Below, one piece after another: positions 1-19,477 of a DNA stretch of 20,000 nt; the stretch's first letter is position 1, and every line of letters begins with the position of its first letter. The DNA is from Psammoneis japonica (Eukaryota). The translations under genes were made by a program, and so were the position numbers. The notes beneath the pieces are model-generated. The model saw only the letters and a program-made list of their open reading frames with translations. It searched no databases and was not told where the DNA came from. The stretch is from contig QPGO01000244.1 in assembly GCA_008632985.1 (NCBI GenBank), forward strand, positions 77,701 to 97,700, given 5' to 3'.

Positions 1-2322
1 TTGGATTCACACATTGAGGTGTTTTCTAAATGCTGCAGAGCATGTTGATTGTGATTTTTAGATTGATTCAATGTTGCATTCACACATTGATGCGCTTGAT
101 TCACTGTGAGATAAATCTTTCTTCGCTGTTGTTAAATCGCAGCAATGCACGTGAATATGAAATTGACACGCAGCTGGGTCCAAAGCCCAGTTCTGTGTTT
201 GCGTGCAACCGTGGCGACCGGAAGTCGGGGTGGTGCATTGTCAACTTCTTAAATTGTGGGTGTCAGTCAATTCGGGGATCACCATGGCTCAGGTCAAAAG
301 TGTCATGGGCCCTAAAAAGTTTCTCCTGACCAAAAGCAGTTGAGCAGCATCGTCGTCCATGCATCTGCCGTGTCACAGCTTGAGCCTTGCTTCGATGACA
401 ACGTTGTGTCCAATGAACTGACAACATTGACGCAATGATGTGAGAAAAGTCGATGAACTGTCCACGCAACGATTCCTAAATGCCCTGAGTTGAGCAAAAA
501 TTTTTTCATGTTTTTTTTTAAGTCATGATCTGTCAATGGGAGTTGGCATCGAGGGCACATCAGGGTGCCCAGTTCATGCAAATTTCCAAGTTGAAGTCGC
601 TGAATGTCCTGAGTTGAGCAAAAAAATTTTCATGTTTTTTTGGAAGTCGTGATTTGTCAATGGGAGTTGGCATCGAGGGCATGTCTGCATGTGCCCAGTT
701 CACGCAAATTTGCAAGTTGAAGAAACCCCCCAGTCAAGTTCCAAGTCCAATGATGCCACTGGCAGCGCCTCAGAAGCTCCCAAGAAAGGCAACATCACCA
801 GGCTGAGCAATGCCCAGAGCATGATGACACCTCGGCTGTCAAGAGATCAACCACCAGATCCCCACCACCCGAGCGATCACGCCACATTGGCCTCTGAGAA
901 AAAAACAACATGAAAACAACTTGTGGGCCAAGAGTGCTGCACCCAAGCTCTCAAATGAAAGCAGTGCCCTGTCCACCGCCGTTGCCACCTTCGGCGCAAG
1001 GCCAAAAGAAAAAAAGATGAAAAGGCTGTGTGGAAAAGAAGAGCCAGAGACATGGGGTGCAAAAAGTTGAGCCCTGCTGTCGGACCACCTCATCATCTCG
1101 GATGCCCGCCTCCACCCCCCACCCTTGCTTGCACCCCAGACAGATGCGAAGCTTGCCCTCAGGGAAATCAATGATGTGAAAGCAGCCCACAATGGAAAAG
1201 GAGCTCACTCAGCATGTGCGCATCGAAGTCAGTCCATCGCAGCTGCTCATGTCAAGCAGGCACATTTGCAAGTTGAGCGACAGACATGGCATCAATGAAA
1301 GAAAGTTCCTCCACAGGTTTCATTGCAACAACAACGCGGTTGCCAGGTGCCCCCACAATCGCCGCCAAGCTCCGATCTGCAGGAGCTGCAAGCACACACT
1401 TTTGCAGACCAAGCTCGCAAACAACACGCTGCCGCGGCACAAAAGCAGTGGCCTCAAAGAAGTGGCGCTGCATGTGTGTGCTTGTCTCTGGGCTTTTGGG
1501 GCGGCCCTTCCTGGTTCCTGTTTTTTTCTTTCATGTCGGCACTTCCCCCTGAACAAGCCAAGAAGACAACAATGGTGGAGCAGCGCAACAACTGTCGGGC
1601 ATTTGTGCGGGGGCTGAGGGTCACCCAACAAAGAGATTCTTGGGTTTGATTTGGAGCTCCTCTTTCAGATGTTTTGCATCCCGAGTTGGAGCCCCTTGCC
1701 TGGGCCAGGGCTGGGGTTCGCAAGGCACTGTTGATGCGCTGCTGCTGTGCGCTTGATGCACAAGCTTTGTTTTTTGGCACTTGCACAGACTCTGTGACTC
1801 ATTGTCGATGAGTGCTGCTGACACACTGCCAAACAGAAGAGCGTTGGTGATCGAGTGTGGAGATGAGAACATTCGCCCCACAGCGGAAGGGCAGTTTTCA
1901 ATTTTTGCAGCTGCGCGAGTGTTTGGAGCGTCGCGGCAAAGGCGGCAATTTGTGGGTGTGTGCCAGATGATGCTGATCCCACTGGAGTTGGAACAGCAGA
2001 CTGTTGCGAGCAGCCACTTGACAAATGGAAAACACCGGGTGCAAGTGAGTGTCTGTGCAGGTGGCGGTGGTGATGCAAGGCACACCAGAGCTGTCTGCCA
2101 GAGCTGAGCTCATGCCACCAGCAGGGCACACGAGGCCACATGAGCAAATTCGCCGGGTGTTTCGGCAGGGTCAGCTGACAGCAGTCGTGTGTCATCTGCG
2201 TTGACAGTGACCGCAAATCAAGAATTTCTGCTCACAAGCTGCTCAAATCTTGCCTGATGTTCACAGCTGGCCCCAACCCTCTGACCCTGACCCAATGACC
2301 CATGCAAGACGCGTTCCAGGTC
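1..2322. other. TpA-depleted domain of decayed repeat/pseudogene sequence
   Basis: About 9 TA in 1-520 and none seen in 521-2322. ORFs in all frames are rich in Cys/His/Trp and almost lack Tyr. No recognisable intact protein. Confidence 0.8.
437..722 (+). repeat. Dispersed repeat family: 28-bp block (437-464) plus two tandem ~120-bp units (478-596, 602-722)
   Basis: The units share gagttgagcaaaaa...gtcaatgggagttggcatcgagggca...caagttgaag. The same block order recurs at 5327-5499. Confidence 0.85.
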
Positions 2323-2829
2323 TAGGTGGGACCTCGCACTACTGAACTGTGACATCGATAGTTTTTTGAATCGCGTCGTATGTCGCGCACGTACATTTCT
2401 ACGTGATTTTGGCGAAATTTTGTATGATTTTATAGTACAATTATCAGGCTATCCCTTGAACAACTTTTTATATTTTTTTCTTCTACGCCATTCTCGAGTG
2501 TCTTAAGAATGGCGTAGGGCAGGCGTATTATCCAAAACTTCGAGTACGAACAGGGACGGATAGATGTACTACAAACTTGGCCGTTTTTTTTATGTCGAAG
2601 ATAAATATATGCATTAACCACAGTACGAACTACAGAGCTCGCACGTAGAATTCTACGGGGCAAATGTCACAAACCAGGCCTGCGGGGAGCATTGACCACT
2701 TGTCTTTCTTTGTGGGTGTGGGTGTATGTGTGCCGTTGCATGCTGTATTGCCTGTACGTACGTAGGGCCCTACCGCCGGGGCCGGTATTGTGGCGGCTGA
2801 GTGGCGTGGCCACCGCACCGGTGACGCGG

Positions 2830-4666
2830 ATGACCGTTATATTTGATGTCTCATGCCATTTTTGGGGCTGTAGCGAGCACAGCGGTTTCAACGGTTTCAA
2901 CGCGCATTTCAGGGCGAACGGTGAAATGTGCTCATTACCCATTTCTCCTTCCCTCGCCGATTCATTTCATTGCACGTCGCACGTCTTCAAGTCTATTACG
3001 ATGGCACTCTTTGTCAATTGAAGATGTAACTCTACAGCATTATTGACACCCCTTTGTAACATACCATTTAGAGAAGACAGGTAAGTCAAAATTTGCCAAC
3101 TGTGTTAGTCAGCAGTTCCTTCTTCCCCGCCAACATCCCCACCCGACTCCTCAACATTGTTCTACAGTACAGTCTCTGTCTCGACAGCGAGGTTTGCCCT
3201 TTGCCGCCTTTTTGGCTTCCTTCCTCTCCATCGTCTCGCCTGAAAAATTCGTCTATCGATTATCTTTTATCTTGTCCCGAACGGAAGCTGATTCTGTCAC
3301 GACATTCCGGAAGAGCTCGGGGAGGAATTGGAGAATTCCAAGACGATTGCCATATTGCGTCGGCTCAGGAAATCAGCAGCTAGGCCTATTATCAGGAACG
3401 ATCGCACCGCGATCATCAAGCCAAGTTTGACGCTGAGATTGATGGACTTGGTGCATGATGTAGACCATTTAAGTGGCAAGAATAACGATTGGTTTCTCGA
3501 CAGGCTGAGCTGGAAGCCGAGCTGCACGATAATGACATGGAAGTTGCCCCGTTCAAGACGATTTGATGTTGACAGTCATGCGAGTGTTTTTCCGTGGCAG
3601 GACTGCACACGATAAAAAGCGATCATGGCATCATGTCTCTTTCAGCAGATGCTGCTGTACTTTGGTGGACCGTCTGCTTGCAAAGCAACGCTTGGCTGAG
3701 ACCCTCGCTCTCAGCCGTCAGCGACCACTGTTTGCTCTAGGAAATGTGCTTGGGAGCACTGCATGGCTACTTTAGGCACACAACTTGTTACTCTGGGCAT
3801 TGTGTAAGATTCAACTATAGCACTTGAGATGATTACCCACTACTGCACGTCGGTTGGTTCATGGCCTGCGTCGAATGGTAGGATTTGACCTAGTTTAGAA
3901 ATGATGGACCTTCCTAGCAAGAAATTTCCATTGCATCAACCTGTTAGAAATGCCCACACTATCAACATCTTAAATGTATAAGGCCAATCAAGTGAACTTA
4001 CCTGGATCATCGACCTGCTGTACAGTATCAGCCCGACGGTGCATTTCTCATCGACTAACAGAGAACAGCGGCTTGAGCTGATTTGAGCTCGGATGATCCC
4101 GACAGAATGCTTCCAATGCCATCACACCAAGTCTTTTAATAAGAATACTAAGACTGCGCTGCATTGTAGAGTCCATACTGGACTTTTCATCCACCCCTAC
4201 AGTCAAGCTCATTCGTCCCGTCATCGTGGCATGAATCTCGTCGTCAGGAGTGGCACGAATGATCGTGTGTTTTTCTCTCTAGGCTTCTACAGATGGAACA
4301 ATTTTGCACAGCATGATAGTAAGATACAATAGAGAGCTGAAACATGGGAGATACTGGGAGAGGCAAGTCAAAATACCATCAACAAGGCCACCGTCAGATC
4401 CATGACAACAAATCGACGAAAACTCGTTCCGACAATCCAGTACAAACCCCACGTAGAAATCTACGATGATTTCCACGAAAAAAGGCGCAACCGAGATTCC
4501 GTCCGCCATTGTCAACCATATCGATAACGACGACATCAAAACATCTTACACTAAGGGAAAAACGACATATGACCTCAATAATACCATGAACGACAACATA
4601 TCTCATTTTTTCCTCAGTGTCGGCAGTTTACATGAAGTAGAACCGGCTGTTGTCGATTCATGGTGA
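2830..4666 (+). pseudogene. Possible fragmented or multi-exon gene of unknown function
   Basis: Normal TA content. ATG at 2830 lies ~60 bp after a TAGGGCCCTAC motif. Candidate introns at 2921-2990 (GT..AG) and from 3081 (AG|GTAAGT). Several short protein-like + frames (e.g. RQAELEAELHDNDME), but no continuous ORF or family recognised. Confidence 0.2.
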
Positions 4667-5326
4667 CTGCGGCTCTGAGCAACAAATTTTTTTTGTGCGG
4701 TGACAGTGTGCTTTTTTCAAAACTTTGAAGATTAAAAAGTTCCTAATTCCAGTTTGATTTGGCACACCCGAACATTTTTTTCACAGACAAACACGCTCAC
4801 CGTTCTCGCGCGGAAACCGCTGTGGCGAGGTGCACGGACACTCTTTTTTTTCCAATTTATCGCCATAATAGCGCATCGCACAAACTCACTTATTGTTCGA
4901 CATGTTTTCCCCAATATGACTTTTTCGTGTAGAATTCACGATAAATTATCTTTGTATATAACTGAATACATTTTTGAACATGCCACGCCGGCAATCCCAA
5001 TTTTTCAGAACTTTCGAGCTCTCCTGAAAAACCGTGCCACGTGCCCGTCGTAGGGAATTTATCGATTTTTTAGGATGTCCCCACAACCTCTCATGTCCTC
5101 AATGACAATTCCAAGAATCCGAAGAATTCATCTGCACTGAACAACCCACACCCTTTCAAAATCCAAGGGACACACTTTCAAATTCAGACGGACAACCCGA
5201 CTGCCCGACTGCCCCACTGCCGGACCGACACGAAAAAGTCTGCAATCACCAACCACTGAGTGGTCAATGAAAGTCCCACCCAGGACTGGAACCCGTCGCA
5301 AGAAAAGTCGATGAGCTGTCTCCAAC

Positions 5327-5499
5327 GATGTGAGAAAAGTCGATGAACTGTCCAAGCAAGGACCCCAAATTTTTTTTTGCTTCAAATGCCAAATGTCCCA
5401 AGTTGAGCAAAATTTTTCCATGGGTTTTGTTGCAAGTCGTGGTTTGTCAATGGGATTTGGCATTGAGGGCATGTCTGCACGTTCGCGCAAACTTCCAAG
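5327..5499 (+). repeat. Third copy of the 437-722 repeat family (possible transposon subterminal sequence)
   Basis: gatgtgagaaaagtcgatgaactgtcca is identical to 437-464, and 5391-5499 aligns with 478-596 and 602-722. Confidence 0.8.
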
Positions 5500-5739
5500 G
5501 TGTCAGTCAACATTGCTGACCTCTGCATGTGTGCTCTTTTTTCCTCATGTGCAAACCTGTGTGAGCCAATTGCCAGAAAGAACAACACATCTTGGTGCAC
5601 CCAGCCCAAAGCCTGTCTCAAGCTGCACCTTGTTTTGTCTCTCAGCTCTTCATTGTCTGGGTGGATCTCTCACACGCGGCATCACCTTGTGCCAAATCTT
5701 TGACCTCGCTGGCTTCAGAGACCCTTGCACACACTGCCC

Positions 5740-6223
5740 CAGCTTGGCAATGGCATCCTGACATTCTGCCAGCTCGGCAATGGCATCTGGCAATCCGACA
5801 TGGTGTTCTCGAGAGTCCGAACATGGTCTGCCAGTTTGGCGATGGCATCCTGACATTCTGCCAGCTTGGCAATGGCATCCTGATGATCCAACATGGTGTT
5901 CTTGAGAGTCCAAACTTGGTCTGCCAGCTTGGCAATGGCACCCTGACAATCCGACACGGTGTTCTCAAGAGTCTGAAAGTGGTGTGCCAGCTCAGCAACA
6001 GCATCCTGATGTTCCACCAGCTCGGCAATGGCATCCTGACGTTCTGCCATGGTGTTCTTGAGAGTCTGAAAGCAGTTTGCTGGCTCAGCAATGGCATCCT
6101 GACATTCCACCAGCTTGGCAATGGCACCCTGACATTCTGCCATGGTGTTCTTGAGAGTTCAAATGTGGTTTGCCAGCTTGGCAATGGCATCCTGACATTT
6201 CACCAGCCCGGCAACAGCACCCT
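5740..6223 (-). repeat. Coding-type minisatellite of mixed 30-bp and 63-bp units; relic of a coiled-coil protein
   Basis: Units start at 5740, 5770, 5832, 5862, 5925, 5988, 6018, 6081, 6111, 6174 and 6204 with core cagcttggcaatggcatcctga. The minus strand reads (AExQDAIAEL / ADxVRTLENTM)n. One 1-bp deletion near 5788. Confidence 0.85.
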
Positions 6224-6654
6224 CAACAGTTTCGTTGGATTTCTTGAGTTCGCCAGTGGATGCCGCCAAGCAGCGCTGCCTCCTTTCCCTTGCACGCTGA
6301 TTTTCTGATGAATTGCAAGGGGAGTGCTGGTGTGCTTGATGATGCCAATGCGATGCCTGCTGCCACGTTGTTGCTTTCCCCAGTGAGCGAAAGGCAACAA
6401 CAACACACAGTCATCACAACGGCTGCAACGCGGTCAGTGGCAAGGTGGCGCTCATGCTCAAATCTTGCCTGGTGTTGTTTGTGGCCGGCCTGTGATTGTT
6501 CCAGTGGCTGAGCCTCCTCCATGTGGCACCGCAACAACCAAGCACTGCACACGACTGCTCAAGCATGACTGTGCAGCATGAGCCGTGTTTTCAGTCTGTC
6601 ATGGTTGCCTGTGTTGGCTTGCCTCCATCACATCACATGATGACAGCCGAGTGC

Positions 6655-7276
6655 TGCACGTCTTGTGCTCTCATTTTGTTGTTGCTGCCAGACCTGCATG
6701 CTGCTTGCAAGCAGCCATGGCTGCAAACAACAACAGTGGCTGCAGGATGCACAGGTGGAATGAAGGTGATGATGCCGGGGAACTTTTGGGCCATGTGCAC
6801 AACCCTCGCAGCCCTGACATGATGTTCGCTCATGGAAATTGTCTCGCCAGAACACGTGGACAGAGCCCAGAATCTGAGCGGAAACTGGAGGTTGGTGTGC
6901 ACCACCATGTTCCACAAACACTGCAAGAGCATTGTGAAGCCAATCTTCCAGGCCGCGCCTCCTCCTGTGCCCACCGCCCACCCTCCCTCCTCTTGCAAAC
7001 CCACCTCGCAACACCACTGGGGTCATCCTCCACCTGGGCATCACTGTCCTCAATGCTCAAGGTGGTCAAGTTGAGCAATGCCAGCATTTTGCTTCATCAG
7101 CTCCACACAGGTTCTGACCCTCTTTTGTTGTTTTCTCTTGGGCCCAGATTTGGCTGGCATTGTCACAGCCACAGCACAAGGCCAGGTGACAGCCAGCTGG
7201 CAGCATCCTCTGAGATTTTTTGTTGTGGGACAATGCACGTCTTGTGCTCTCATTTTGCCATTGCTTCCAGACCTGC
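6655..7276 (+). repeat. 43-bp direct repeat pair (6655-6697 and 7234-7276)
   Basis: tgcacgtcttgtgctctcattttg...ccagacctgc occurs twice with about 4 mismatches. Confidence 0.75.
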
Positions 7277-8067
7277 TGAGAAACGTGCCTGATGCTGCCA
7301 CCCTTTCTAAGAAATGCAATTTGGCTGCTGCAGCCCACTCAGTGAACAGACACATGTGTGCGCGGCTGGCTGTTTCAATGTTGGATGCCCTGCCACTGCT
7401 CCATGTTGAAGCACATTGCTGGACACTTCCATGGCAACAAGCACTGGGGCATCACCTGCAAGAAACCTGGCCAAGACAACCCCAAGTTGCCCGCCTTCCC
7501 CAAAATGATGATCCCTTCCAGCTTTGCCAGCTGTTTTGGTTGGGTTGGCCAGTCGTGTGTCGTCTGCATCAACCATGATGTAAAATCAAGAGTTCAGACC
7601 AAAGTTGTTGCAGTGGCCTTGAGTGTGTTGGAAAGCACCTCAGATTTCTTTGAGAAGCAAGCCAGTGCCAATGATGCTGACCACACCAAAGTCCAGAGAC
7701 TTGGTGCAGAGCCAAAGCAATCTGGTGCAGCATCACATTCTCCAGCTGCACCCGCATGGAGAGGTTCTGATCCACCAAAGCACACAAGGGACACACCATT
7801 GTTGCTGGAAGCATTGATGGATGGATTGCCCAGCCCAAGTCAGAGAAAATGGTGGCTTTTCCTCCTCCAAGCCAGAGTGAGAATGGACTCTCCCAAGAAT
7901 GGAAAGCCTGATCTGCCAAAGCATGCAAGGATCATGCCATTGAAACCATCACTGCATGGATCACTCAAGTTGGAGATCCTTCCAGCCAGAGTGAGCATGG
8001 GCTCTCTGGTCCTGATGATTCTGAGAATGGCAGTGGCAAGATGCCAGCCAAAGATCCGGGTCAGAAA

Positions 8068-8212
8068 CCCAAGGTGAATGTCCAATTTTCCAAGCGGTGT
8101 TTTTGCAGCAGTGTTGTCAAATGCATGATGAAGAACACAGAAACTGGATCACCCATGTTTGGCATTGAATGTGAAGATGGCAACACTGAAGACATCAATC
8201 AAGAGGAGTGTG
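8068..8212 (+). pseudogene. Relic of a Tudor-like domain
   Basis: KVNVQFSKRCFCSSVVKC...PMFGIECEDGNTEDINQEE resembles the G-x-V-x-x-Y...(Y/F)-x-I-x-YEDGDxED pattern once C->Y and N->D are restored. Recognised by eye only. Confidence 0.45.
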
Positions 8213-9554
8213 CATCTAAACACTCAACAAGGAGCTTCCTTCAAAAGCTCATTTCACTCAAAATGTCAACATCCACAACTTGCCATTGGCCACTGAAAAT
8301 GTTGCTGAGACACAAACCACAGATTCTGTGACTGGCAAACCACCCACAAAACAATTGGAAGAGCCACGCGGCAATGAGATCTTTTGACACTTCAGAAGCA
8401 GCTTCGCTGTCTGAATTCTAAAAAAACATCCAAATTCCAAACCCCTCCCCACTGATTTCATTCACATCCATTTGCCATGACATGGCTGGCCACACATGGC
8501 ACAAATTTTAAGTTCATCATCCCCATTTTCACTGGAACAAAGCGCACACTGCCAGCCTTGCCACTTGGGGCAATGTGCTGACAATGGGGCTCACCACAAG
8601 TGTCCTGCAGAGATCTTCCTTGAAGTCACGCTGGGGGTGAGCCTGGGGTGAGCAGTCATTGGCTCCCCTGGCTGCAGCAACTGCTGTGAGAGTCTCACAG
8701 CTCCAGCTGAATGTTGCAGCATGGGTGATGCTTGGGTGTGGTGAAGGGTTTGAAGAAATGGGCACCACTTCAGCAACAGAGACTGCACCTCCATCCACAT
8801 GCAATTGAGGTGTCTCACTTTATGGCATGACATCTCAATGGCACTTTCACCAACTTTCACCCATTTTCCCATTTCTTGCTTTGTTCTTCTTGGTGACAAT
8901 TTTGCAATGCACACGCTGTTTTCTTCAAAGTCAGCACACGTTCAAGCTGAGATTGCAAATTTCACATTCAACACACACAACACCCAGTTGCCATTTCGGA
9001 AACTCTGGATCAACAGGAATGTTGCTGTTGTTTGGCAATGGCTCTGACAGCACACCAAACATCACATGCTTTGTAATGGGTTTGCATTGTTGCCACCCAG
9101 CAGTGCAGGATGCTTGGCTTCAGCACTGTGTCACACTCACAGTGGCTGTCTCAATCTGGCCTGTGCTTCTGAGAGGCAAGAAGAAAAGCAAAATGAGTGA
9201 GTGAGCAAGATTTCACTCTTTGGATGTGACCACAAACAATGCCAGAAGGTTGGACAGATGATGGGCAAACAAGAGCACCAAGTCAGCCTGAGTGAGAAGG
9301 CCCCATTTGTGGTCACCAGAGAGGATCTTCTTGCAGACCTCGCTGTTGTTTTTTGGCACTTGAAAGTTGGGCACTCTGTGGCCTGCAATGACGGGCACTC
9401 AAGAGATGCCCACAGCTCTGCAAAATGGAAGCACAGCAATGGAGGCAGAGCTCAGAGAAATGTGCAGGTCAGCCATGTGAAGTTGCCAACATGCAGACAC
9501 ACATGGGACCCTTTTCCTTTGCCCTTTGAACCAGGAGCTGCTTTTCAGTGCCTT

Positions 9555-10690
9555 TCACACATCACTTGGGTGAGAGTCAGAAAGAGCTGCCAGGTTCTGC
9601 AGCTTCTTGGACACCCAGATGATGGGACATCTGACATGACAAATGACATGTCCGATGCATGGCTTGATGGACGTTGGGTCCTGCCTGTCTTCAGCACAGA
9701 AGAGTCCCACAAAATCAGCACCAACACAGCTGTCCAGATGACGGTCAGTGGTGGGTGCAAGGATGAGCCCCTTGTTGGTGGCACCCTTCAAGTGACAAAG
9801 AGTGTGTTTGATGGCAACAGTGTGCAAGGCTTTGGGAGCACAGGAGAACTGCACAATTTGATGGACAGTGGACAGGCAGTGTTTGGGTGGCTGTCAGATG
9901 CTGGGTGCATCAGCGTGCCGACCACGGGGCAACAGTTGCAGGGTTCATCCAATGGCAGGCCTTCAGCAAAGTTGCCACCAACAGGTGTGGGAAGTGCAGG
10001 AGCAGGAGCTCCATTGCAGTTTTCCACATCTTGGTGGCACGCAGAACTTTCTCAGTTGGGCCAGGCCAGGTCAAGAAGGAAGAGCCAGCCACTCTTGAGC
10101 TTCTGGATCTTGATGCCCAAAAAGTCACCAACTTTGTGCCTTCACCACACAGGTCAAAGACATGGCATTGCTCGCCATCAGAGATGCCCAATTTGGCAAT
10201 GTGTCTCTGTTTGCTTCAAGTTCTTGAGCAGGTGCACCGGCAAACACGGCATCATCAACGTGCACCACACATGGCACACCCTTCTTTTGAAATGAAGACA
10301 AGAGTCAACAGCAGACTGGGACCAATCTCTTTCGAGTGATCCATCATGCAGCTTTCCACAGAAACACTTGGGAGGCTGATCATGAAGGCCACACAGGCCT
10401 TTCAACAGTTTCAGCACCAAATCGGCGACCGATCTTCTTGGCTGAGAACCCTTGGAAAGCTCCACACAGACTTTGTCCTTGGTGTCAGCTTGGTGCTGGG
10501 GATGCAACCATTTGCACAGATGACACAAAAGGAGGGGGGTGCCTCTCTCGAGGTTGTGCAACGCAGTGCAGAGGGTGACAACCGCACAGCAGGGGACAAT
10601 GAGACATGCCAAAAATGCAAATTGTGAGATGCTCTCTCACTTGTGCAAGAGTGACAATTTCGACCAACGGTCGCCAACGTCACTCCGACC
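9555..10690 (-). mobile_element. Degenerate Ty1/copia LTR-retrotransposon pol fragment (RT plus N-terminal RNase H), CoDi-like
   Basis: Motifs occur in copia order across frameshifts: LKLLKGLCGL (=LxKSLYGL), QSAVDSCLH, VHVDD at 10251-10265 (=YVDD), NCCPVVGTLMHPASDSHPNTAC (=YRSVVGMLMYLAxNSRPDIAY), KHTLCHLKG (=KRIxRYLKG), CVGADFVGL (=YVDADFAGL), GHVI..CPIIWVSK.LQ..AALS. No LTRs found. Confidence 0.9.
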
Positions 10691-10849
10691 ACTGTGCTGT
10701 TGCCGCAAGACTCGACGGACGTTTTTGCGGAAGCAAATCTGTCGTGACAACATGTCGATGACCCAAGGAGTCCACCGCCATCCGTGAACCAGCAGACTGG
10801 TGACTAGTGGCAGCTTGGCTCTTGTGGCTTGGGGCCGGCGCCGGCATCT

Positions 10850-12350: not shown

Positions 12351-13031
12351 ATTGAAAAGAAAGTGAACGATTGTGATTGAAAGTGGCTGTGTCGTAATTT
12401 GGGCAAAGGAAGTTTTTATGAGGTTGTGTCGTCGTTTGGTGCAAGCATTTCTCGAAGTCGCGGTTCTGTGGCGCAAGCAGTTTTCTACCCGCGACTCAAT
12501 ATCAAAATCGCGACTCGACTCGATCCGCGCCATCTAGTACATGATCCATGTAGAATGTACAGTACGTACGACCCCTACATGCTGTAGGTTGACATCTTCG
12601 CTCAGAGTACATACAGTGCTGAGACTGTGAACACTTGGGCATGTCTACCGGTAGAAGGTACCGCAGTACCGTATTATGTACGAAGTACCTTACTTCTTGT
12701 ACTAAAGCCTAACCAACCTTACTGCGTACGGTACATAGGGCCCTACAGCTTTCGGTGTCGTTTGCTCTTGTTTTTGGTCGCGGCGTGACATGCCTTCCCG
12801 CGCGACTGCGTGCGCCCTGCATGCATTCTCGCCGCAAGGCGAAGAAGGATGCCACACATTTTTTCTGAAAATCCAAATTCCAAATTCTGTTGAAGCTTGG
12901 CCAACGTACGGATGACGTCGGGGGTCTGAGGTCGGTGCGGTGTCAACTCTAGGGCCCTACGGTACTGTAGCGCAGCGCACACAAAAAGTCAGTGACACTA
13001 ACTGACAACTGACAACTGTGACGATTTGACG
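12351..13031. promoter_or_regulatory. Divergent intergenic/promoter region between cyclin and ACS
   Basis: The two genes are head-to-head. The region contains 12 GTAC in 12537-12734 and TAGGGCCCTAC at 12736 and 12950. Confidence 0.6.
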
Positions 13032-15144
13032 ATGAAGTTTTCGTCGAGTGCGCTGCTGTTGCTCTTGTGCAAGTCAGCAGTGATCCAGTCCTTTGCTCCG
13101 CCTCAGCCAACGTTTGGTCGTGGTAGACTTGTTCTTCATGCCGCCACAAACGGTGAAACTGCGGTCAAGCAAGAAGCATCAAAAACAGAGGAAGAAGAGC
13201 CTCACTTTGCCGAGAAGCAGTACGATGCTGTAACCAATTCGGCCTTTGAAAAATACAAGAAAGAATATGAGGAATCGATCAAGGATCCCTCTAAGTTTTG
13301 GTCTCAGCAAGCTGAAGATATGTTGGACTGGCAACAGCCTTTTCACGCAGCTTTGCAGGGATCACTTGAAGACGGATCTGTCACGTGGTTTGCTGGAGGA
13401 AAGCTCAATGTCTGTTACAATGCCATTGATCGTCACGTGGAAACTGGAAATGACGTTGCTCTGGTTTGGGAAGGGGATGAGCCAAGCGACACCAAGTCGT
13501 ACACTTATAAGGAACTCTTGGCAAAGACGTCTCAAATTGCCAACGCACTAAAATCGCAAGGTGTCAGGCGAGGAGATGTGGTCACGATTTACATGCCAAT
13601 GATACCTGAGTTAGCCATGACGATGCTAGCATGTGCAAGAATCGGTGCTGTTCACTCTGTTGTGTTTGCAGGATTCTCGTCCGAAGCCTTGGCGCAGCGC
13701 ATTGCCGCGGCACAGTCAAAATTCGTGGTGACAGCGGATGTCGGAAAACGTGGGGGTAAGACTATCGCGCTGAAAGATATTGTGAATGACAGTTTAGATC
13801 TCCAAGACTGCGACGCTGTTGTGGAAAAGGTGTTTGTCTTCGAACGCTTTCATGATCCAGAATCGACAGAGGCGACTTTTGAAATGAAAGACAAGGATGT
13901 CCGAATGGATCCACTCGTCAGAAGACAACGGCCGTACTGCGTTCCAGAAACAATGGACGCCGAAGACGACTTGTTTATTCTTTACACTTCCGGCAGTACG
14001 GGCATGCCAAAGGGCTTGGTCCACACGACCGGTGGGTATGCTCTCTATGCTGCATTTACCACAAAGAATACCTTTAACTTGGCGAAAGATGATCTGTTTG
14101 CATGTGTGGCCGATTGTGGTTGGATTACAGGACACACCTACGTTGTCTATGGTGCGCTTTTGAACGGCGGCACTACCTTTATGTTTGAGTCAACACCTGT
14201 CTATCCGATCCTGGCAGGTATTGGGACATGGTGGAGCGACACGGGATCACATTATCTACACCGCACCTACAGCGATTCGTCTTTTGATGCGGTATGAGAT
14301 GAATATCCGAAAAAATATGATTTATCGAGTCTCAAGGTTTTAGGAAGTGTCGGAGAGCCTATCAACCCAGAAGCATGGCGCTGGTACTTTGAGACAATTG
14401 GTCGCTCTCAATGTAGCGTGGTTGATACCTATTGGCAAACGGAGACTGGCGGCCATATAATTACAAACTTTCCCGGAGTAACGCCCATGAAACCGGGAAG
14501 TTGTACATTGCCGTCATATGGAATCGATGCGGTAGTGTTGGACCCTCTTGATGGACACGTGTTGGAGGGCAGTCCGCAGGAGGGTGTCTTGGCAATTCGT
14601 CAGCCATGGCCGGGTATGGCCCGAACGTGTCTAGGCGATCACGAGCGGTACATGCAGGTGTACACAAAGCCTTATCCAGGCTTCTACTTTACAGGCGACT
14701 CCGTGATTCGAGATCAAGATGGATACCATTTTATTACCGGGCGTGTCGATGATGTATGAACGTGAGCGGTCATCGGATTGGCACCGCCGAAGTAGAAAGC
14801 GCCTCGTCGGTCACTCAGGAGTGGCGCAAGCAGCTGTCGTTGGACAGCCCCATCCTATCAAGGGGCAATCGATTGTTGCCTTTGTCATGTTGGATGTTAA
14901 ACATGAGGAGAGTGACTCTCTTGTGAAGGAACTGCGCAATCAAGTACGGACCGACATTGGGCCGTTCGCATCTCCTGACGTCATTTGTGTTGCTCCTTCA
15001 CTCCCAATGACCCGTAGTGGAAAAATTATGAGACGTATCCTTCGCAAAATTGTTGCCGGGGAAACGGATACATTAGGTGATACGAGTACTCTTGCGGATC
15101 CATCAATTGTCGACGTTCTCATTGACAAAGTTGAAAGCTGGTAG
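13032..15144 (+). CDS. ACS: Acetyl-CoA synthetase (AMP-forming), predicted plastid-targeted; five 1-bp frameshifts in this sequence
   Basis: Motifs [92 protein letters not shown] and [11 protein letters not shown]. The N-terminus is a signal peptide followed by S-FAP. Frame breaks at about 14206, 14255, 14296, 14755 and 14803. Confidence 0.93.
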
Positions 15145-16944: not shown

Positions 16945-17290
16945 GTAGCTCGCTCTACTAGTAGGCTCGGCTACTCTAGAGAGCTAGAGTGGCTATGGCT
17001 CTACAGCAGCTACTCTAGAGTCTACCGTTGGCTACCGTAGCTGCTTAGAGAGCTGGCCACAAGAGCTGGCTCTGCTCTAGAGCCAAGCCACTGGAGCTAG
17101 CTCTGCTCTAGAGCTAAGCTGCTAGAGCCAGCTCTGCTCTGGAGCTAAGCTGCTAGAGCTGGCTCTGCTCTAGAGCTAAGCCACTAGAGCTAGCTCTACT
17201 CTCTAGCTAGAGAGCACCGGTAGAGTAGAGCATAGCTACTCTCTCTAGAGCTGAGAGTTAGAGAGAGGGCCCTAAGCTAGCTAGCTCGAG
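16945..17290. repeat. CTAG/AGAG-rich low-complexity tract containing a 31-bp tandem array (17062-17202, 4.5 units)
   Basis: Units at 17062, 17093, 17124, 17155 and 17186. Inferred consensus agagctagctctactctagagctaagctact, with internal palindromes agagctagctct and ctctagag. Confidence 0.9.
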
Positions 17291-17593: not shown

Positions 17594-19477
17594 ATGGCAT
17601 CGGGAGGAACGCATCGCAAAGCGCGAAAAGCGGGTGGAGTGAACGTTGAGGCGGTACATCCTTTCGAACCGAAGCCGTCCAATCCTTCGTCTCTCCCAAG
17701 GAAAATGATGTCTTGTGTGGAAGAGGCGTGCATGCCAGCCAGCATGGCGGCAATGTCTACATTTGGCAGCTGGTGAAGCAACGACAAGAGGAATACACAT
17801 TGCACGCACCCAAAGCTCGCAAACAAGAGATTTCTCGTGAAATCGTACAGCAGATACACAGTCTCTCTCCTCCAGGAAGATTCATGAGAAAGAATGAGAG
17901 GCTAAATGTTTGGATGGAGGTGTCTGACGAGGAGGCGCGAAAGAAAGTCAGTCAATGCCTTCGTGAGAAGAAAGGGAGCGAGCCGCCCAATTTTTCGTAT
18001 CTCCCAAGGAAGAATGATGTCTTGAGTGGAAGAGGCTCGGGTCCCAACCAGCATGACGGCAATGTCTACCTTCGGCAGCTGGTGAAGCAGCGACAAGAGG
18101 AATACACATTCCACGCATCCAAAGCCCGCAAACAAGAGATTTCTCGTGAAATCGTACAGCAGATACACAGTCTCTCTCCTCCAGGAAGATTCATGAGAAA
18201 GAATGAGAGGCTGAATCTTTGGATGGAGGTGTCTCATGAGGAGGCGCGAAAGAAAGTCAGTCAATGCCTTCGTGAGAAGAAAGAGGGCAAAAGCAAATGT
18301 TCGCAGGATCTTTCTTTTAACGACTCGGCAGAATTACTCCAGTTTCAACCGAGCACACAAGCTGTTCGCTCGCTCATTGACCATCGTCCGTCGCAATCGC
18401 CCCTATGCTGGAGCTACAACGCAAGCTCGACCATCTCTTCGGCAAGAGAACCGACGCAGCAAGAAACACGCACAAGCTGAAGAGGTACCGACCCTGGCAA
18501 ATGAAGTAGAAGACCGTAAAACTCTTCCTGTCAAGAAAAGGAGGCCTACGCTACAAATGCCGGAAAATTGTGACATTATTGATGTTGACGCTGAGCCGGA
18601 AGCACCATGGCACGCTCACCTTTCACAATACCCTTGGTTGACAAAAACTGGCTCAGTCAATACCAACTAGAAGATGATAAAGAGGTTGGCGCCGACGAAC
18701 CGCATGCGCCATGGGACGCTCACCTTTCACAATACCCCATGGTTGACAAATATCGGGTTAGTCAATACCAATTAGGTGATGAAGAGGTTGACGCCGAGGA
18801 GCCGAAAGCACCATGGGACGCTCACCTTTCACAATACCCCATGGTTGACGAGAATTGGATCAGTAGATACAAACTGGGTGACAAAGAGGAGCTTGGTGCC
18901 AGGGAATGCTCCCGGTAAGTGCATCAATCATCCTTTGAATTTCAGCACATGTGGTTTTTCTTATTCGCTCATCATCCGCCCTCCTGGTGCAACGGTGAAC
19001 AGAACGATACTCGAAGAAGTCGAGCCCTTCATACCACGCCCGGAGTCTACCGCGTCAAAAACCCCGACCAGCATACTGAAACACTCGAGTAAACCTTGCC
19101 GTGAAGGCTTTAGCAAGACCGCTCCTAGCTCCTTCGAAAGCTTTGCATCTTCTGCAATGAATACTCCACCTAAATCCTTAGAGGAAGATCATCACGTAGG
19201 TCAGATCAAGACTGCGCCTTGGTCCGCCGAATCGTCGGTGCCCGATTCATCAGAAGATGCTACTCTAGCTGTAATGAGGAACACGAAGCACGATCGCGGT
19301 GAGAATCAGCTCAAGCCTGCTCCAAAACCTTTGGAAAGATTAGCATCTGATACATCATATACTTCGCTCGTCGTACTGACACACTCCAAGCAAGATCGTG
19401 CTGCTAATGAACGCAAGCTCGCTCCTAGTCCATTGGAAAGGTTGGCGTCCATTGCATCAATTACTCACGAGCCGTAG
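17594..19477 (+). CDS. Protein with two tandem DUF6824-type domains, three ~35-aa repeats and an S/P-rich tail; frameshifted in this sequence
   Basis: NDVL(C/S)GRG...HxGN...LV...Y...KQEISREIVQQI...PPGRF...W.EV..EEARKKVSQCLRE occurs twice. Frame breaks at about 17703, 18465 and 18633. Frame-restoring GT-AG intron at 18915-18992. The true 3' end may extend to ~19700 through another frameshift. Confidence 0.75.
17693..18281 (+). repeat. Intragenic near-identical tandem duplication, period ~309 bp
   Basis: 17693-17972 and 18001-18281 align with long identical stretches, each encoding one DUF6824-type domain. Confidence 0.92.
18583..18890 (+). repeat. Three ~102-105-bp coding repeats (EPxAPWDAHLSQYPMVDxxxxSQYQLGD)
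   Basis: ccatgg(g/c)acgctcacctttcacaataccc occurs three times (~18605, 18709, 18811). Confidence 0.9.

Follow-up and report, generated by a model that had tools for sequence, protein, structure and literature searches.

In ascomycete fungi, repeat-induced point mutation (RIP) converts C to T at CpA/TpG, which makes TA, and depends on RID/DNMT4 and on homologous pairing before meiosis. Deaminases of the TadA/ADAT2 type are marked by an HxE/PCxxC motif and by a deoxyinosine intermediate.

In Bigelowiella natans, de novo TpA>TpG/CpA hypermutation has been measured in integrated NCLDV and virophage DNA, at a rate about 1000-fold above background and in certain lineages only; the parts of the preprint that were available propose an ADAT2-like deaminase, a proposal untested there (Mettrop et al., 10.64898/2026.01.13.699255). 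The available main text holds no match to ‘flanking’, ‘context’, ‘trinucleotide’ or ‘diatom’ and no flank analysis. This preprint was the only report returned by a literature search for TpA erasure in diatoms, and a further search yielded no usable 3-mer data on base editors. The natural substrate of TadA is U33-A34-C35-G36 of tRNA (from a partial view of PMC10586758). In TadA-derived editors the preference for a preceding pyrimidine persists (10.64898/2026.07.20.739671), and engineered editors also accept CA and other contexts, according to the available parts of both sources (10.64898/2026.07.20.739671, PMC10586758). Many diatoms carry DNMT4, and DNMT5 places CG methylation on diatom CoDi retrotransposons, as stated in the available text of PMC9998398.

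Layout of the TA-erased locus

The window, the whole stretch of 20,000 nucleotides analysed here, is from Psammoneis japonica and contains genes for a cyclin, an acetyl-CoA synthetase, a prefoldin and a DUF6824 protein; the named relatives of the prefoldin are diatoms (identity 50-66%). These host genes retain TA, whereas a copia relic and repeats sit inside two blocks from which it has been erased. The features are as follows.

1-2320, no strand: TA-erased block 1, continuing past the left end of the window
1-520, no strand: partly erased part of block 1 (9 TA, rho TA 0.22, rho CG 0.79)
521-2320, no strand: fully erased part of block 1 (0 TA, rho CG 0.50)
433-722, plus strand: 124-bp tandem repeat, with a third copy at 5323-5502
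2308-5297, no strand: multi-copy composite element, TA largely intact, separating blocks 1 and 2
5075-10800, no strand: TA-erased block 2 (7 TA in 5.7 kb; rho CA/TG about 1.8, rho CG 0.15-0.38)
7300-9080, no strand: stretch with all seven block 2 survivors, the most CG-poor part (rho 0.15)
9558-10612, minus strand: dead Ty1/copia (CoDi-type) RT-RNase H relic, frameshifted

Over the 8046 bases of the two blocks (1-2320 and 5075-10800) there are 16 TA steps, where about 300 would be expected at the ordinary rho of the window, a loss of about 95%. Their rho values are 0.03 for TA, 1.75 for CA/TG and 0.37 for CG, against 0.64, 1.17 and 0.96 in the rest of the window. The nearest TA steps flanking block 2 lie at 5071 on the left and 10805 on the right. 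Within the window the loss is restricted to TpA and the remaining A/T contexts are spared: AA steps are undepleted in the blocks (rho 1.21 against 1.12 in undepleted DNA), AT (0.88), AC (0.91) and GA (0.97) are near the values of undepleted DNA, and TC/GA has changed little (rho GA 1.09 in undepleted DNA). The erasure is confined to repeated DNA, yet TA is also retained in the multi-copy element (2308-5070) and in a tandem repeat rich in CTAG (17031-17260). The latter, with a 31-bp unit, abundant TA (rho 1.2) and low CG (0.44), is a repeat that escapes TA erasure.

The composite element is bounded by 25-bp terminal inverted repeats (2308-2332 and 5273-5297, 21/25 alike), with TA in the left arm matched by TG in the right. 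Its last 200 bp are free of TA, as if erasure had come in from the right. At its left end contig depth reaches about 59,700 (bin 2002-2668), compared with 55-70 over genes. An inner element (2690-5269) has 11-bp inverted ends, and one contig joins 2672 directly to 5270. At 3269, 3353, 3484 and 4582 the window reads TA where other copies of the element read TG or CA, differences that are unpolarised. A Pfam search of the composite element (2308-5297) gave no match.

Two further repeats were noted. One, within the erased block at 5709-6290, is a nested 30/63/93-bp tandem repeat whose minus strand is coiled-coil-like, with Pfam matches below cutoff only. The other, at 17673-18283 and 18593-18889, comprises two tandem DUF6824 domains (92% alike, with a unit of 309 bp) and, after them, a triple repeat of 102 bp. 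A six-frame Pfam scan of 1-10803 (18 frames) gave below-cutoff coiled-coil matches only, searches of Rfam and PDB gave no match, and no deaminase was found among the open reading frames of the window.

Flanks of the surviving TA steps

The 16 surviving steps are distributed as follows.

Block 2: 7308 CTAA, 7581 GTAA, 8217 CTAA, 8419 CTAA, 8509 TTAA, 8821 TTAT, 9074 GTAA
1-520: 27, 59, 112, 133, 156, 250, 313, 477 and 519, eight of the nine being TAAA/TTTA

The original prediction had named seven survivors in the large block, all in TAA/TTA context, and eight of nine in 1-520 with an exception near 156. A listing of all TA steps returned exactly these sites, with 156 reading ATAT. The prediction had also put the chance expectation at roughly half, and base composition gives 43% and the controls 35-45%. 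In total 15/16 window survivors are TAA/TTA, compared with 179/512 TA steps in the undepleted part (35%; Fisher p 2e-6) and 786/1756 TG/CA steps of the blocks (45%; p 6e-5); the 7/7 of block 2 alone gives p 0.004. The narrower class TAAA/TTTA, one of seven motif classes tried and chosen post hoc on 16 survivors of one window, takes in 13/16 (5/7 in block 2) against 67/512 and 220/1756 (13% each; p 4e-9 and 1e-9). A second A follows TAA in 13/15 survivors and in 220/786 controls (p 5e-6), and 15/16 survivors begin an A/T tract of at least 3, compared with 34% of controls.

Among single-feature models TAAA fits best (AIC 147.7, compared with 168.8 for TAA, 173.3 for YTAR and 184.5 for the null), and among 12 models local AT content adds to TAAA. 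If ordinary TA is taken as the ancestor, about one-third of ancestral TAAA steps have survived (13 of about 40) against 1% of the others (3 of about 267). The survivors sit in AT-richer patches (mean GC 0.44). The bias nevertheless persists against TA steps in AT-rich undepleted DNA (13/59, p 2e-5) and surviving CG steps have no such bias (22/193 against 92/664), so that a general shelter of AT-rich DNA is not the explanation. CTAG is absent from the survivors, though in undepleted DNA it is about as common as CTAA (42 against 49). TACG is likewise seen in 0/16, which is uninformative on a TACG preference. YTAR was considered as the main rule and set aside, as it covers 11/16 survivors and fits worse here than TAAA.

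In the tandem repeat the homologous step reads TA (477), TG (601) and CA (about 5391, where the alignment adjoins an insertion) in the three copies. At 519 the TA closes a T-run, and the other two copies read GG or GC.

Direction and strand of the change

For the copia relic, 922 relatives reach an E of 0.001 or better (best 2.8e-18); those with names are from the diatoms Seminavis robusta and Cylindrotheca closterium. RVT_2 is present in four of the six relatives tested, the four long ones; the relic itself, searched in three pieces, no longer matches Pfam. Its conserved Tyr codons read TGT/TGC or CAC/CAT, and all five consensus Tyr columns are TGT (2) or CAY (3), which shows that TA has changed to both TG and CA, on both strands. 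All four consensus Arg columns read CAC, CAG, TGT or TGC, and CG has therefore decayed to the same products. At the DNA level, Tyr columns have become TG 4 and CA 3 times in the window and TG 10 and CA 5 times in L006, the second erased assembly described below, and A:T>G:C transitions at TpA that yield both TG and CA are thus found in both.

The erasure of TA removes stops, so dead elements retain long frames. Of 249 copia proteins scored, a set enriched by the query, 12 show Cys or His in 40% or more of their Tyr columns. One protein, P0191, is a full-length copia frame of 2061 residues with a single Tyr. A preceding Asn or Leu was tried as a mark of surviving Tyr and rejected: it was seen at 7/7 in four eroded copia proteins, and the column-matched comparison gave 7/27 against 6/54 (p 0.11).

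At Tyr codons the choice of strand appears to depend on the flanks. At the DNA level Y-TA-Y became TG 10 times and CA once, and the symmetric R-TA-Y became TG 4 and CA 7 times (p 0.024); for overlapping sites the strand choice is 10:4 against 2:10. By this count the A before a pyrimidine appears to be preferred to its partner A before a purine, nearly all partners being TAG. A protein-level test, from which P0271 and P0272 were dropped as members of the same cluster as P0191, points the opposite way (17:3 against 6:6, p 0.049), with codon ends inferred and few independent columns. The bulk TG:CA asymmetry of the window is 0.20 (95% -0.12 to 0.48), with 0.12 and 0.23 on two other baselines and 0.52 when the intact copia L002 is used; split by 4-mer class it is not significant. 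The satellite site G-TA-AAA of L006 gives TG 28 and CA 11, which speaks against the sparing of the half in which A precedes another A. Among the partner halves of the 13 TAAA survivors a purine stands at +1 in 10/13, compared with 26/67 controls. Some of these partner halves have contexts in which erasure is fast in L006, and this points to a shielding of the TA step as a whole by the A-run.

A second TA-erased assembly

A pattern scan of prokaryote genome bins gave 12 loci, namely one erased (L006), ten un-erased copia loci that serve as controls, and one chance match. The GC-matched control set comprises eight of 11 un-erased copia loci, including L002. L006 is a TA-erased eukaryotic contig with no nucleotide match to the window among the matches listed, and may be of the same species. 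The contig (L006/L019; G001:C4, 25,579 bases), which lies in a bacterial bin, carries two copia elements and 183-bp and 28-bp satellites nearly without CG; copia contigs also occur in ten other bins. The same scan gave no erased locus in metagenomes (three loci, of which two are chance matches and one an un-erased copia), and for viral contigs both the pattern scan and the protein scans gave 0. TA erasure was also absent from 19 further contig starts and from 13 stretches of a large G001 contig. At L021 1-3000 (G001:C2) CG is strongly reduced (rho 0.07) and TA is ordinary; this is probably another eukaryotic contaminant, with CG decay only.

The first element of L006 is a young copia whose LTRs (1-307 and 6473-6779) are 98% alike, with rho TA 0.24 and rho CG 0.96. 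Beyond it lie an old, fully erased copia and then the satellites. That the young element is TA-poor with its CG intact shows that TA loss runs well ahead of CG decay, and this combination with the near-identical LTRs suggests a high rate. The LTRs differ at six letters, four of which make up two TG/CA swaps. At the 59 columns where the intact relative L002 has TA, L006 reads CA 18, TG 17 and TA 7 times, and changes of the reverse kind number 7. At 6370-6372 a Tyr column of the young element reads CGC, a state reached in two changes, first from TA to CA or TG and from there to CG; a second hit at CA is possible.

The L006 survivors are TAA/TTA in 53/94 cases (56%) against 308/873 (35%) in the eight intact copia loci (p 1e-4), and TAAA/TTTA in 22% against 11% (p 0.002). 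Compared with the TG/CA steps of L006 itself (47% and 16%) neither excess is significant (p 0.086 and 0.15). The predicted avoidance by the mutator of TA beside A/T runs is therefore borne out in the window and, more weakly, in L006. TACG is found in only 2/94 L006 survivors, as opposed to 135/873, 145/1147 and 65/511 in three controls (13-15%; p 7e-5, 8e-4 and 1e-3), and G at +2 is halved against all three (p at most 4e-4). A T-A-C-G preference, as expected of TadA, is thus found in L006 only. Recruitment by nearby CpG as the cause of TACG loss was unsupported, since the depletion of CG at +2 to +5 falls short of significance (p 0.10-0.87). When trained on L006, a flank model recognises the window survivors with an AUC of 0.71 (p 0.002) under the intact-copia control and of 0.51-0.53 under the internal control.

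The fully erased part of L006 has 18 distinct survivor contexts, ten of them TAA/TTA and only five TAAA/TTTA; in the old copia two TA are left, both TTA. The main remaining site of the 183-bp satellite (G-TA-AAA) reads TA in 14, TG in 28 and CA in 11 of 53 copies. All three states occur in both sub-lineages, the copies not being independent.

Reliability of the sequence

The window was compared with short-read contigs, which may stem from its own sample. These contigs span 14/16 survivors, five of them without any gap. Over 1-749 the contig differs by two letters, which leave every TA in place, and by four gap letters; over 6314-7342 and 8111-9055 there are no gaps and 11 and 7 other differing letters, which are partly listed. 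Among the 24 listed differences between block and contig, 15 are CG against TG/CA and one makes a TA, in TTAT context, the contig having at 6821 a TA that is absent from the window. Divergence between window and contigs is about 0.3-1.2% in the erased blocks and 0-0.2% over genes. The contig carries CG in 11/15 of the listed CG polymorphisms, which could include weak CA>CG editing and are unpolarised. The CG/TG polymorphism of the blocks fits DNMT5 CG methylation of diatom copia elements. The acetyl-CoA synthetase gene (13026-15144) is split across several frames, and these splits are probably assembly errors, since a 2344-base contig differs there by five gap letters.

Proposed mechanism and alternatives

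TA is lost to TG and to CA, on both strands, with a flank bias and a lead over CpG decay. A flank bias alone is no proof of an enzyme, as spontaneous mutation is context-dependent too. A dedicated process is indicated instead by the loss of about 95% of TA with AA spared, the directional change of Tyr to Cys or His, and the TA-poor young element with 98% identical LTRs and intact CG; on these grounds the original prediction of an enzyme rather than neutral drift is supported.

We consider it probable that the blocks are the work of a putative DNA adenine deaminase that is targeted to repeats, prefers T-A-Y-G and acts more slowly next to A-runs. A host process aimed at silenced repeats would change T:A to C:G solely at TpA, on both strands. 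Its most likely agent would be a TadA/ADAT2-like DNA adenine deaminase, converting A to inosine, which would be copied as G at replication; each TA step would offer two target adenines, one on each strand, and end as TG or CA. The rate would be set by the next two bases on the 3′ side of the A, with T-A-C-G and other T-A-N-G the fastest and T-A-A-A/T the slowest. An adjoining A-run would shield the step, plausibly as A-tract DNA opens poorly, and survivors would thus gather beside A/T runs. The available text of PMC5393899 reports AT pairs in A-tracts to stay closed for up to 100 ms, against 1-5 ms, a delay that would hold back any enzyme needing access to the base. Protection beside A-runs may accordingly come from DNA shape instead of base reading. 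The CpG loss in the blocks would be a separate, slower process, the deamination of methylated CG. We infer the adenine rather than thymine chemistry, the enzyme family, the targeting to silent chromatin and the role of DNA shape. In sequence, A>G and T>C chemistry would look alike.

An identical sequence outcome would arise if, in silenced repeats, a TET/JBP-type enzyme oxidised the T of TpA to 5hmU and then to 5-formyl-U, fixing T>C, with the flank rule applying to the other strand; 5-formyl-U is mutagenic through mispairing with G. A dinoflagellate TET/JBP makes 5hmU on transposons and reportedly prefers TA and TC (PMC11572971), in a source whose available part contains no mention of diatoms. 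This thymine route is unlikely, given that TC/GA steps are little changed in the blocks (rho GA 0.97 against 1.09) and that the TACG preference matches TadA instead. It is also conceivable that erasure was nearly flank-blind and that most window survivors were born later at the edges of A/T runs, by slippage, dislocation mutagenesis or ordinary C>T. All seven block 2 survivors do come from the part of it with the least CG (rho CG 0.15), which is probably the oldest, the TA at 519 closes a T-run where the other copies have GG or GC, and the contig-only TA at 6821 stands in TTAT context, so that some survivors may be TAs born after erasure. As an account of most of them, however, later birth is improbable: the young L006 element had little time, yet leans to TAA and has lost nearly all TACG, the strand choice at Tyr codons appears flank-dependent, and the three states of the satellite site (14/28/11 of 53) and of 477 derive most simply from an ancestral TA.

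Pol eta makes A>G changes at WA, with TA above AA, and an error-prone polymerase of this kind acting in repair patches of silent chromatin could bring its own flank rule. AA steps are wholly undepleted, however, the LTRs of the young element differ almost solely at TG/CA steps, and in the hypermutable regions of B. natans all GC-ward changes fall on TpA in the available text (10.64898/2026.01.13.699255), which makes such a polymerase quite improbable. Very little credence can be given to neutral drift or composition, to selection that disfavours TA, or to an error of assembly. The window assembly does contain some indel errors (the five gap letters in acetyl-CoA synthetase) and the survivors do lie in AT-richer patches (mean GC 0.44), but the bias persists against AT-rich controls, the short-read contigs cover 14/16 survivors (five gap-free) and the second assembly shows the same pattern. 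Selection would moreover have to explain the destruction of catalytic and conserved Tyr codons, the opposite of what it should do. The adenine deaminase thus remains the preferred reading.

Comparison with known systems

Only one alga has been described in print as defending its genome by natural DNA adenine editing, and no enzyme has been demonstrated there. To this the present analysis adds the extension of the rule to TAAA and A-runs, evidence at the DNA level from another assembly, and the preference for TACG and for G at +2. Candidate deaminases could be assayed directly for the flank fingerprint (T-A-C-G fast, T-A-A-A slow), which can also be compared at once with the 231 de novo B. natans mutations; diatoms are genetically tractable, so knock-outs could reveal the enzyme. 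If a natural DNA adenine deaminase with strict TpA specificity is real, it would be of interest to base-editor work. For annotation it matters that TA-erased relics lose TAA/TAG stops and Tyr codons, yield long false ORFs and escape Pfam.

Judged by analogy, the process is like that of B. natans and mirror-like to RIP. With B. natans it shares TA to TG and TA to CA changes on both strands, limited to foreign or repeated DNA, and a long-term loss of TpA with gain of CpA and TpG; among the TpA-poor sequences described in the available part of that work are reverse transcriptase and transposase genes. B. natans is a chlorarachniophyte, whereas the present host is a diatom (stramenopile) and the targets are kb-sized blocks of transposon relics between genes. 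Erasure is also nearly complete here (rho TA 0.03), compared with 0.45 in the B. natans NCLDV region as given in the available text, and is accompanied here by CpG loss. DNMT5 methylation of CoDi elements explains the loss of CG and the CG/TG polymorphism (15/24 listed differences), but it leaves TA alone, and in L006 the loss of TA is far ahead of that of CG.

The likeness to TadA/ADAT2 lies in the proposed A>G chemistry, the pyrimidine before A, and the match of UACG to the most depleted TACG; natural TadA, however, acts on tRNA, and the editors take CA, which is an end product here. As a tentative generalisation, somewhat less likely than otherwise, diatoms, like the unrelated B. natans, could defend their genomes with a double-strand adenine editor of the TadA/ADAT family that keeps the U-A-C-G preference, hits new transposons before CG decay, is blocked by A-tracts and has spread over several protists, an A-to-G mirror of RIP. 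RIP and the present process have in common irreversible, repeat-targeted and dinucleotide-specific transitions that kill transposons. The C>T change with accumulation of TpA that defines RIP is not what is seen in the blocks, where TpA is lost and CpA/TpG gained: RIP creates TA from CA/TG, whereas here TA is destroyed and CA/TG created.
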